A stretch of DNA of 61,037 nt from an uncultured Halanaerobiales bacterium (GTDB lineage Bacteria; Bacillota; Halanaerobiia; Halanaerobiales; M55B127): assembly GCA_964526845.1 (NCBI GenBank), contig CAZGMM010000003.1, positions 1 to 61,037 on the forward strand. Direction: 5' to 3'. This document shows positions 3,324 to 7,777 of this stretch, in pieces. Position 1 is the stretch's first letter. The number at the start of each line of letters is the position of its first letter. The position numbers and the translations under genes are program-made. Below the pieces are notes generated by a model. The model was not told the origin of the DNA, searched no databases, and worked only from the letters and a program-made list of their open reading frames with translations.

Positions 3324-3347
3324 TTAGTTTCTTTATAATTATTAACG

Positions 3348-3456
3348 CGCCTTCTCTCATCCGGACTGTTTACCGTCGGTACTGGAAATTAACCAGTTCA
3401 GCGTTAGCTCGTGGACTTTACCACCGGTCTGGAATTACACCATGCCCTGAAGACAA
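3348..3456 (-). ncRNA. FMN riboswitch (RFN element)
   Basis: Minus strand CTTCAGGGCATGGTGTAATTCCAGACCGGTGGTAAAGTCCACGAG...CCGACGGTAAACAGTCCGGATGAGAGAAG matches the RFN consensus. Confidence 0.97.
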
Positions 3457-3478
3457 TTTTTATTCAATTCTTGAAGAT

Positions 3479-5811: not shown

Positions 5812-7377
5812 CTAATGTTCCATTTCTACTTCTTCTAATTTTGCTTCTTTAACACTTTTACCAAATACGTTGACTATTGTATAAAGTACTATAATACCAA
5901 CCGGTAAACTAATTAGAGGGGATATACCTAAACCGGCCGGTAAAAATCCGAATATAGCCGCCACAGCTGCAACTGTTAAGGCATAGGGCAGCTGAGTGGA
6001 AACATGGTCGATATGGTCTACCGCAGAAGCCGTAGAGGACATAATGGTTGTATCAGAAATTGGAGAACAATGATCTCCCATAACCGCTGCTGTTAAGACT
6101 GCCCCAATTGCCGGCAGCATTGGTGAGCCAATGTTATGGGCTAAAGGAATAGCTAAAGGCATCACTATGGCAACCGTTCCCCAGGAACTCCCTATTGTAA
6201 ATGCTATAAAAGCGGAAATTATAAATAGGAGGACCGGGATTAAAAAGGCAGGTAAATTACCTTCTAGGATACCAACTAGAAAATTAGCTGTACCCAAGTC
6301 ATCAGTGATACTTCCGATTGACCAGGCTAAAATCAAGATCATTGTCGCAATAAACATCGATTTTGCCCCATCAATCCAGCTTTCCACTACATCTGATATA
6401 TCTAAAATACCTTTAATCAGTGCATTTATACCAGCTACAAAACCACCCGCAAAGGAGGCCCACAGCAATACTACACTGGCATCTGCATCACCAAAGGCGG
6501 TTTGAATACTAACGTCGGGAGAAGCTCCTCCCCCGTTATACCAGAGACCGAATAAGGTTACTATAATAACAACAAAAATAGGTGAAAAGGCATCTAAAAT
6601 ACTAAAAGAAGCTCCGGCCGGTTTTTCGATCTCTTCTAGTTCCTTGGAAACCATAGGTGTTGAGCCCGGTCTTAGGGACTGTCCGGTAGTCCTTGCCCTA
6701 TGTTCGGCTGTATACATCGGGCCAAAGTCTTTCATTAAGTAAATTACGATAAGGGCAAAAAGTAAAGCAAAAATTGAATAATATCTATAAGGTATGGTCT
6801 TTACAAAAGTCGTATAGGCACTTGCTTCAATACCTAATTTGTCAAAACCGTCTTTAATAACTCCCACCTCAAAGGCAATCCAGGTAGAAATAGGTACGAT
6901 ACTGGATACAGCTGCCGCTGTGAGGTCAACAACAAAGGAAAGTTTCTCTCTTGAAACATTCATTTTATCAGTTATGGGCCGCATTGTATTACCTACAATT
7001 AAAGTATTAGCATAATCATCAAAAAAGATTAATACTCCCATCGACCAGGTAGCCAGTAATGTATTTTTAATTGATTTAGCTCTTTTTGCTACATATTCAC
7101 CAATTGCTACAACTCCCCCAGCTTTATTTATAATCCCTATCATACCACCCATTGACAGTAAGAATATAATAATACCGGCATTCCAGGAATCAGCCAGTGA
7201 GCCTAACATATATTTATCCAAAGTTGATGCAAAAGCAGCAATTGGATTATAACTCGATAATATTAAAGCACCTGAAAACACTCCTATAAATAATGAAATA
7301 ATTACCTCTTTACTCCACCAAGCCAAAATAATAGCTAAAAGTGGTGGAATAAGAGATATAATACCATAGTTTTCCAT
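5812..7377 (-). CDS. NhaC-family transporter, probable lysine importer (LysW-like)
   Basis: FFDDYAN, GSSWGT and GDHCSPISDTT motifs; lysine riboswitch upstream. Confidence 0.85.
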   Translation of the reverse strand: MENYGIISLIPPLLAIILAWWSKEVIISLFIGVFSGALILSSYNPIAAFASTLDKYMLGSLADSWNAGIIIFLLSMGGMIGIINKAGGVVAIGEYVAKRAKSIKNTLLATWSMGVLIFFDDYANTLIVGNTMRPITDKMNVSREKLSFVVDLTAAAVSSIVPISTWIAFEVGVIKDGFDKLGIEASAYTTFVKTIPYRYYSIFALLFALIVIYLMKDFGPMYTAEHRARTTGQSLRPGSTPMVSKELEEIEKPAGASFSILDAFSPIFVVIIVTLFGLWYNGGGASPDVSIQTAFGDADASVVLLWASFAGGFVAGINALIKGILDISDVVESWIDGAKSMFIATMILILAWSIGSITDDLGTANFLVGILEGNLPAFLIPVLLFIISAFIAFTIGSSWGTVAIVMPLAIPLAHNIGSPMLPAIGAVLTAAVMGDHCSPISDTTIMSSTASAVDHIDHVSTQLPYALTVAAVAAIFGFLPAGLGISPLISLPVGIIVLYTIVNVFGKSVKEAKLEEVEMEH

Positions 7378-7421
7378 ATTGATTATACCTCCATTTTATT
7401 TTATTTCTTAGTTTTTATATG

Positions 7422-7487
7422 CTAATTTTTTTCTATAAAATAACAAAACCCAGCGGGATTTCCGCTGGGTATGAATTCAAATTGCAC
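7422..7487 (-). CDS. Candidate 21-aa uORF (MQFEFIPSGNPAGFCYFIEKN) crossing the riboswitch terminator
   Basis: GTG start 10 nt after AGGAGGTG, TAG at 7422-7424; translation is unproven. Confidence 0.3.
   Translation of the reverse strand: MQFEFIPSGNPAGFCYFIEKN
7442..7470 (-). terminator. Terminator of the lysine riboswitch expression platform
   Basis: ACCCAGCGG-N5-CCGCTGGGT then TTTGTTATTTT. Confidence 0.85.
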
Positions 7488-7516
7488 CAGTAGAAACCAC
7501 CTCCTCTTTCCCTTTT

Positions 7517-7707
7517 GATGAGATAGCTCAACACTGAAATACGGGTTCATATTTCAATGACAGTCCTGCATATCTTATATACAGACCCAGCCTTTAATTT
7601 TTCGAACCAGAAAAATCAAAAGCTTCGGCAGAACTCCCTTTCACTTTTTACCAGTAGGTTCTTTATAAGTAAAAAGCTAATCTTAAGTTCTGCGCCTCTA
7701 CCTCATC
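7517..7707 (-). ncRNA. Lysine riboswitch (L-box)
   Basis: P1 GATGAGGTAG/CTATCTCATC; conserved AGAGGCGC, GAAAGG, GCCGAA, CTGGG, ACTGTC and GAGCTA blocks in the expected order. Confidence 0.95.
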
Positions 7708-7748
7708 CGGTCAAAGATGAGGTAATTTCAACTATTTAATTTTCTATA

Positions 7749-7777
7749 ATTGTATATGATATTATTTTTGCTGTCAA
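7749..7777 (-). promoter_or_regulatory. Sigma-A promoter of the lysine riboswitch leader
   Basis: TTGACA-N17-TACAAT. Confidence 0.85.

Follow-up and report, generated by a model that had tools for sequence, protein, structure and literature searches.

Transcriptional riboswitches are usually explained, and engineered, through a direct overlap between the 3' strand of the aptamer helix P1 and the expression platform. The leader considered here lies in a 61,037-nt stretch of DNA from an uncultured Halanaerobiales bacterium, the whole of which is referred to as the window. It combines a lysine aptamer with an intrinsic terminator, and raises the question by which route the aptamer could act on that terminator. 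A preliminary description of this DNA had proposed that a strand upstream of the aptamer possesses two mutually exclusive partners, a proposal that is backed by comparative data, covariation and RNA-seq of a relative.

Elements of the leader

The elements of the locus, all on the minus strand, are as follows.

7749-7777, minus: promoter with TTGACA (7777-7772), a 17-nt spacer and TACAAT (7754-7749); 11/12 sigma-70-type matches, the top candidate in the region
7713-7735, minus: leader strand (A-ext), AUAGUUGAAAUUACCUCAUCUUU; 5' strand of helix P0, with a core (7724-7715) that is the 5' arm of the leader hairpin
7699-7724, minus: leader hairpin A:B, with arm 7724-7715, loop 7714-7709 and arm 7708-7699; from RNAfold, shuffles and covariation
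7516-7708, minus: lysine riboswitch aptamer, RF00168; Rfam score 107.9 bits against a gathering score of 30
7707-7698 with 7526-7517, minus: P1, pairs verified
7488-7509, minus: purine element and its extension (D+E), AAAGAGGAGGUGGUUUCUACUG; 3' strand of P0 and, from 7504, 5' strand of the antiterminator
7452-7504, minus: predicted antiterminator, 7504-7487 (GGAGGUGGUUUCUACUGG) with 7468-7452; 17 pairs with three 1-nt interruptions
7438-7470, minus: intrinsic terminator ACCCAGCGG-AAAUC-CCGCUGGGU (7470-7448) followed by the U tract UUUGUUAUUU; -17.6 kcal/mol
7375-7392, minus: true ribosome-binding site GGAGG (7392-7388) and ATG (7377-7375)
5812-7377, minus: regulated gene, encoding a 521-aa NhaC-type Na+/H+ antiporter family protein (PF03553, 1.7e-69)

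The Rfam match covers model positions 1-182 with E = 7.8e-28, which makes the aptamer an ordinary RF00168 member; it lies upstream of an NhaC/LysW-family gene, within its 5' UTR, and lysine binding is predicted. The occurrence of lysine riboswitches 5' of nhaC/lysW-type transporter genes is a documented association (PMC5584792), and the regulated gene is itself a candidate lysine transporter of the LysW type. The terminator stem consists of 9 bp, seven of them GC, and is the sole intrinsic terminator 3' of the aptamer; an AU-rich spacer separates it from the Shine-Dalgarno (SD) sequence GGAGG. From the promoter a transcription start site (TSS) is predicted at about 7742, in agreement with the position near 7742 suggested earlier. 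Near-consensus promoters occur at matching sites in most related leaders, and place the leader element at approximately +13 to +49.

Four strands would take part in switching. Two are pyrimidine-rich, namely A (7735-7713) and C (P1 3' strand, 7526-7517), and two are purine-rich, namely B (P1 5' strand, 7707-7698) and D+E (7509-7487).

Two further features of the neighbourhood were recorded. A full-length FMN riboswitch (RF00050, 101.3 bits) is located at 3345-3458 on the minus strand, about 2.3 kb downstream of the NhaC gene and past a SpoIID/TPR gene; the related loci L001 and L002 likewise carry FMN riboswitches about 2.3-2.8 kb downstream of the NhaC gene. A 60-aa open reading frame antisense to the lysine riboswitch (7557-7739, plus strand) is taken as spurious.

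Alternative pairings of the leader strand in the window

Both pairings reported for the leader strand are exact in their coordinates and pair counts when read from the sequence. The first is a 9-bp hairpin, in which UACCUCAUC (7724-7716) matches GAUGAGGUA (7707-7699, P1 5' strand) perfectly. RNAfold adds a tenth, U-G pair, and the resulting 10-bp A:B hairpin has a 6-nt loop and an energy of -14.2 kcal/mol. Its second arm is the P1 5' strand plus one base, so that A:B and P1 exclude each other. None of 500 dinucleotide-preserving shuffles of the 5' flank reached the observed duplex energy with the P1 5' strand (z = -3.9).

The second pairing, of UUACCUCAUCUUU (7725-7713) with AAAGAGGAGGUGG (7509-7497), comprises 10 Watson-Crick pairs, two G-U pairs and one A.G mismatch, as claimed. 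The helix, here called P0, is longer than the preliminary description had it: 7735-7713 pairs with 7509-7488 over 22 positions with two mismatches, at -22.5 kcal/mol. Again, 0/500 shuffles of the same kind matched the observed duplex energy, in this case with the 3' flank (z = -4.1), and the unconstrained minimum free energy (MFE) structure of the whole leader contains P0, stacked outside P1. Topologically P0 is an outward extension of P1 and as such conventional; the unusual part is the hairpin that cages the 5' strand of P0 on the 5' strand of P1.

This anatomy can also be read as an ordinary long helix 1, although we regard that as unlikely. P0 would be the outer part of an extended P1 that overlaps the antiterminator, and A:B a by-product with no role of its own, arising from the likeness of A to C and of D to B, which an old duplication, for example, could have produced. 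Such a reading draws on the topology, in which P0 extends P1, on the accepted role of P1 as anti-antiterminator in Bacillus subtilis lysC (PMC3082890), and on the full-leader MFE, which has P0 and P1, not A:B. It makes the hairpin functionless, and therefore has to be weighed against the evidence for selection on A:B given below.

One further partner of the leader strand was considered and rejected. A-ext can pair with the true ribosome-binding site (7721-7734 with 7379-7392, minus strand; -13.1 kcal/mol), forming 6 bp with the SD (UACCUC:GAGGUA) plus GUUGA:UCAAU. Any CCUC pairs with GGAGG, however, and the extension is not kept in L001 or L002.

The leader hairpin among related leaders

Genomes and metagenomes were searched with the protein as guide and the hits analysed with Rfam and nhmmer, which gave 29 lysine-riboswitch leaders 5' of NhaC homologues. 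The upstream element is present in 20 of the 29 (16 distinct), whose NhaC proteins are 44-98% identical to that of the window and which derive from Halanaerobiales, some Clostridia-like metagenome-assembled genomes, Fusibacter and unassigned metagenome contigs. A CCUCA core occurs in 15 of the 16 distinct leaders; the remaining one, L010, has UCUCA with matching changes in P1. The complementarity is thus conserved in relatives: A:B forms in all 20 leaders, with energies between -9 and -16 kcal/mol, and is lacking in the nine others (Fusobacteria, Halanaerobacter and others; 0 to -4.4 kcal/mol). In these nine conventional leaders the P1 3' strand pairs directly with the terminator. A terminator is present in 28 of the 29 leaders, L047 being the exception, and the D+E segment is invariant in the group I relatives while the spacers beside it vary.

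Two element-bearing leaders, L160 and L153, possess a classical antiterminator in addition, in which the P1 3' strand (CUCAUCGA) pairs with UCGAUGAG in the terminator 5' arm, and still retain the leader hairpin and a long P0. They are hybrids of both wiring schemes. Because they keep A:B despite their classical antiterminator, A:B may have a role that is independent of P0. Its retention in these two leaders as well as in leaders with a weak P0 marks the hairpin as a universal feature of the clade, and counts against its being a by-product of a long helix 1.

Some leaders carry additional structures. In the group II leaders (L005, L006, L008 and L084) one more conserved hairpin is located downstream of the TSS and 5' of the leader strand, e.g., GAUUAGCAGUUUGACUAAUC at 2661-2680 of L005. 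In Propionigenium maris (L056, 2444-2839) two tandem lysine aptamers, each with its own terminator, precede the NhaC homologue.

Evidence for selection on A:B

Covariation was assessed in an alignment of the 16 distinct leaders (alignment A1), built with fixed offsets around conserved cores and with columns not fitted to structure. In this alignment 90.9% of the A:B cells are standard pairs, and pairing falls to 40-52% when the partner is slid by 1-3 columns. Double-sided changes occur in 5 of the 11 A:B pairs, compared with 1.9 +/- 0.9 in shuffles, and 0/500 shuffles match the observed number; the sequences are related, and shuffle counts are not to be read as probabilities. Most A:B pairs cannot covary, because the cores of A, B, C and D are nearly invariant, and for the long-helix reading this freezing renders most A:B pairs uninformative.

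The informative positions lie close to the loop. For the three loop-proximal positions of B, a pair with A is formed in 13-15 of the 16 leaders and one with C in only 3-10, so that they follow the hairpin and not P1. Covariation with A instead of C is not expected if A:B is only the shadow of a long helix 1. RNAalifold, applied to a plain MAFFT alignment of nine full leaders, likewise favours A:B (10 pairs) over most of P1. Furthermore, A:B beats even a tetraloop-capped P1 in 14 of 17 leaders, by a mean of 1.9 kcal/mol; a functionless hairpin with such an advantage over an idealised P1 would impair the switch. Taken over a set with frozen cores and related sequences, the comparison speaks for selection on the leader hairpin, and against its being an accident of similar sequences.

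The RNAalifold consensus further contains a small hairpin at 7489-7501 (minus strand), GGUGG-UUU-CUACU in the window and GGCGA-UUU-UUGCU in group II. Between the groups, two of the pairs differ in both partners, and the hairpin shares nucleotides with P0 (3' strand) as well as with the antiterminator (5' strand). It may be an analogue of the P6 stem of B. subtilis lysC, or a coincidence, since the changes represent one evolutionary event.

Antiterminator, terminator and the purine element

The preliminary description had taken the purine element for the SD of the regulated gene, a view that does not hold. The element (7509-7497) sits 120-132 nt upstream of the ATG at 7377 with the terminator (7470-7448) in between, and the true SD and start codon (7392-7375) follow 105-134 nt beyond it. 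Because the terminator separates the purine element from the ATG, and the SD is 7392-7388, the output is transcription termination and not SD masking.

When terminator pairs are forbidden, or while the terminator 3' arm is still untranscribed, the antiterminator is the best structure (-17.4 kcal/mol). Its downstream strand draws on both terminator arms, with 7 of 9 nt from the 5' arm and 4 nt from the 3' arm, and includes the loop between them. According to this folding model, the element clamped by the leader strand is the predicted 5' strand of the antiterminator.

P1 and the antiterminator show no overlap whatsoever in the window, so that the direct connection between aptamer and platform is missing there, whereas it is present in the conventional outgroup leaders. 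The P1 3' strand (7526-7517) has hardly any complementarity to the terminator region, its best duplex reaching -3.8 kcal/mol. Given this value, -17.4 kcal/mol for D+E in the antiterminator and -22.5 kcal/mol for A-ext with D+E, P1 could act on the terminator decision only through A. The aptamer motif GCUGGGU was considered as a partner of the terminator 5' arm, with which it forms 7 bp in the window by inspection; the match is not conserved in L005 or L012 and is therefore treated as chance.

A different reading, akin to that of the preliminary description, would make the purine element a real ribosome-binding element that the leader strand masks in the presence of lysine. The element could serve a leader open reading frame of 21 codons from GUG 7484, whose translation blocks termination, or a STAB-SD-like dock for 30S subunits that stabilises the read-through mRNA. 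GGAGGUG is indeed a strong SD-like sequence, and the frame from the GUG 12 nt downstream (7419-7484, minus strand, VQFEFIPSGNPAGFCYFIEKN) crosses the terminator in the window; inspection of the sequences by eye reveals similar frames in L001-L003, and L005, L008 and L007 possess a UUG that follows the element at 6-7 nt. Yet a gap of 12 nt, as seen in the window, is a poor distance, conservation of the peptides does not extend beyond that of the terminator RNA, and the element of L006 and L086 (GAUGAGC) has lost its SD character. Chance alone should yield a frame of about 20 codons in roughly one of four or five cases, and the one from GUG 7484 through the terminator is probably of this kind. 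In addition, a ribosome would have only about 40 nt in which to start translation and catch up with the polymerase, and the element is itself paired in the ON state, either in the antiterminator or with C. The leader-peptide and STAB-SD versions are thus unsupported, and we regard a ribosomal role of the element as highly improbable.

Within the antiterminator 5' strand of the metagenomic leader L082 a 10-nt tandem duplication was observed (CUACUGGUGC twice). Only one CUACUGGUGC copy is present in L001, a close relative that matches L082 exactly in leader hairpin and P1.

P0 as a proposed link between leader hairpin and antiterminator

P0 draws its 3' strand (7509-7488) from practically the same positions as those that supply the antiterminator with its 5' strand (7504-7487). 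How far this arrangement extends beyond the window was assessed with chimeric leaders, in which cognate and non-cognate flanks were compared. The cognate 3' flank is the best or near-best partner in the window, L001-L003, L007, L160 and L086. In L160 and L003 P0 is formed by another sequence in another register, where nucleotides of the hairpin loop pair just 3' of P1. The overall difference is significant (Wilcoxon p = 0.03) but is driven by group I, L007, L160 and L086. In the Halanaerobium group II leaders and in L040, L010 and L013, P0 is only a short core helix with no cognate advantage, and its overlap with the predicted antiterminator is limited to about 2-7 nt in group II. For group II the chimeric test is uninformative, because the purine-rich group I flanks pair with every leader.

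Covariation of both helices had been proposed as a check on the scheme, and the outcome differs between them. The column test covers A:B, which covaries; the D core cannot be anchored without fitting to structure, and P0 is cognate-specific only in group I, L007, L160 and L086. The coupling of the leader hairpin to the antiterminator via P0 is accordingly clearest in the window's own group.

The uneven strength of P0 bears on another explanation, in which the hairpin is a folding guard or tuner only. It would shield the purine-rich P1 5' strand during synthesis of the 190-nt aptamer, or raise the lysine threshold, and the terminator would be coupled to the aptamer by other means. In keeping with this, A:B is the most uniformly conserved feature while P0 strength varies widely, and L160 and L153 couple through the P1 3' strand. 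For the window and group I, by contrast, only A can link P1 to the antiterminator, and the almost exact coincidence of the P0 3' strand with the antiterminator 5' strand is difficult to reconcile with a mere guard. We therefore think it doubtful, more so than a long helix 1, that guarding or tuning is all the hairpin does.

Energetics along the transcript and proposed mechanism

For a window transcript reaching just past C, folding with A:B is preferred to folding with P1 by 6.8 kcal/mol. After 7509-7487 has emerged, P1 together with P0 is ahead by 8.4 kcal/mol, and the MFE of the full leader is P0+P1+terminator. The terminator state is thermodynamically favoured with or without A:B, and a lysine-free ON state would therefore have to be a kinetic trap. 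This energetic imbalance is not peculiar to the window, since the terminators of conventional leaders also outrank their antiterminators.

We lean, if only slightly, towards a transcription-attenuating lysine OFF switch for the NhaC/LysW-type transporter, whose platform is wired via the 5' leader and not via the P1 3' strand. Strands A and B would emerge first and form a stable hairpin, by which A is caged and P1 blocked. In the absence of lysine, C would fail to displace A, and D+E would pair with the terminator 5' arm and loop as the antiterminator, so that the polymerase reads through into the gene. In the presence of lysine, the folded aptamer would capture P1 (B:C) and release A, which would then zip onto D+E as P0; the antiterminator strand would be sequestered, the terminator would form and transcription would stop. 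The trap would consist of the hairpin, formed first, and subsequent local structures (P1 3' strand with the purine element; antiterminator), from which the MFE structure can be reached only by a concerted exchange of four strands. We infer the order of these events, their dependence on lysine and the kinetic trapping from the pairings and energies above.

The scheme retains much of the switch originally proposed for this leader, in which the hairpin forms first and a lysine-stabilised P1 frees the upstream strand, by a strand swap, to clamp the purine element (OFF), and dispenses with the masking of an SD. As the P0 5' strand would clamp the antiterminator strand only once freed, the leader strand would act as a movable anti-antiterminator, and the hairpin as a fourth layer above it.

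For the broader proposal of a four-strand relay shared by the whole clade, we see about even chances. The P1 5' strand would cage the leader strand during transcription and give it up only once lysine allows the P1 3' strand to take its place. P1 would thereby be freed from matching the terminator, the default ON state would be a kinetic trap set before the aptamer is transcribed, and the hierarchy of anti-antiterminator, antiterminator and terminator would gain its fourth layer.

RNA from related leaders

The sequence of the window itself had matches only in DNA metagenomes. A metatranscriptome contig of a 92%-identical relative spans 7301-7660 and represents read-through RNA without ends, and among the RNA runs searched for L008 none was found to contain it. 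The leader L005 (sequence of Halanaerobium congolense DSM 11287) is present in four RNA-seq runs. In three of these, word-depth along the L005 contig is about 20,000-180,000 across the leader vs about 200-300 in the gene and 550-1,600 upstream. The leader RNA is thus several hundred-fold deeper than the gene (about 60- to 1,000-fold, depending on run and position).

At the 5' side, depth climbs over 2652-2658, and both end positions of this interval carry adapter junctions; the rise precedes the leader strand (2688-2696) and lies just before the extra group II hairpin. As the abundant RNA starts at about 2652-2658, the leader strand is transcribed in L005. A TSS downstream of the leader strand would be at odds with the proposed switch; in this relative RNA begins upstream of A.

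At the 3' side, adapter junctions at 2908 fall within a more than 100-fold drop in depth (2905 to 2911), which places the RNA end at 2907-2909. The purine core, GAUGAGG (2901-2907), stops 1 nt short of this protected end, and the U tract of the terminator follows about 37 nt beyond the end. An end at the purine element is as expected if the element is held in a stable helix, for which P0 is by far the strongest candidate. Possible origins are processing back to P0, or termination at the AUUUUU that follows P0 in group II, which the contigs cannot separate. A C:D hairpin, or termination at the run of U that follows D, could likewise account for the protected end.

The L005 leader accumulates as a short RNA of about 250 nt (2652-2909). 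In run X24 only the aptamer core (about 2741-2895) is abundant.

Comparison with known riboswitches

The leader resembles the L-box of B. subtilis lysC in its aptamer family, in the alternatives of antiterminator and intrinsic terminator, and in being OFF by transcription attenuation (PMC3082890). In lysC the lysine-stabilised P1 is the anti-antiterminator (PMC3082890), and the conventional NhaC-linked leaders (for example L027, L056b and L025) work in the same way. The two systems differ in that the P1 3' strand of lysC is itself the antiterminator strand, with no leader hairpin described, whereas P1 of the window misses the antiterminator and a separate outer helix, its 5' strand pre-caged on the P1 5' strand, would provide the link.

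Several of the individual components have parallels elsewhere. In the yxjA purine riboswitch of B. subtilis, the overlap of aptamer and platform is incomplete and competing strand displacement in nascent intermediates, with co-transcriptional exchange via a central helix, has been proposed (PMC9756952); its competitor lies downstream of the aptamer, while that of the window lies upstream and is transcribed first. In Escherichia coli ribB and thiC the ligand-free state holds both P1 strands in alternative helices, the anti-P1 stems (PMC11571811). Their partners appear downstream in the platform, although the paper is explicit only for the anti*-P1 stem (PMC11571811), in contrast to the upstream leader that pairs with the P1 5' strand of the window. 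Moreover, ribB and thiC control translation or Rho termination, and the output of the window is an intrinsic terminator.

Effects of 5'-flanking nucleotides are likewise known. The leader helix (P0) of the glycine riboswitch is formed by 5'-flank nucleotides, long omitted from the aptamer, that alter folding or ligand response (PMC4201829). That P0 is a kink-turn with the inter-aptamer linker and not a switching strand, unlike the leader strand of the window. In the apoB conformer of the Vibrio vulnificus add riboswitch, too, 5'-flanking nucleotides change folding or ligand response; it is an equilibrium pre-fold of a translational switch and involves no terminator relay. The trp (1:2/2:3/3:4) and pyr attenuators offer a hierarchy of mutually exclusive hairpins that is read out co-transcriptionally at an intrinsic terminator. 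They are driven by the ribosome or by PyrR, whereas a metabolite aptamer would drive the four layers of the window (A:B, P1+P0, antiterminator, terminator).

The aptamer family and the terminator/antiterminator output are therefore already known, and the leader-hairpin wiring is apparently new, as we found no description of it. Full-text literature searches returned neither an L-box leader hairpin that sequesters the P1 5' strand nor a leader strand that shuttles between P1 and an antiterminator, an absence from the searchable literature that is no proof of novelty. A preprint on a 'tug-of-war' riboswitch was considered as a precedent and set aside, because its mechanism differs (steric).

Since gene, ligand and output are all conventional, the wider biological effect is modest. 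The interest lies in the wiring: aptamer and antiterminator of the window have no sequence in common and would communicate via a leader strand made before the aptamer. If true, this would constitute a natural modular route for coupling an aptamer to any terminator, and a clean natural system for co-transcriptional strand displacement and kinetic trapping. It would also be a reminder that aptamer-only annotations, such as those of Rfam, miss functional 5' flanks.
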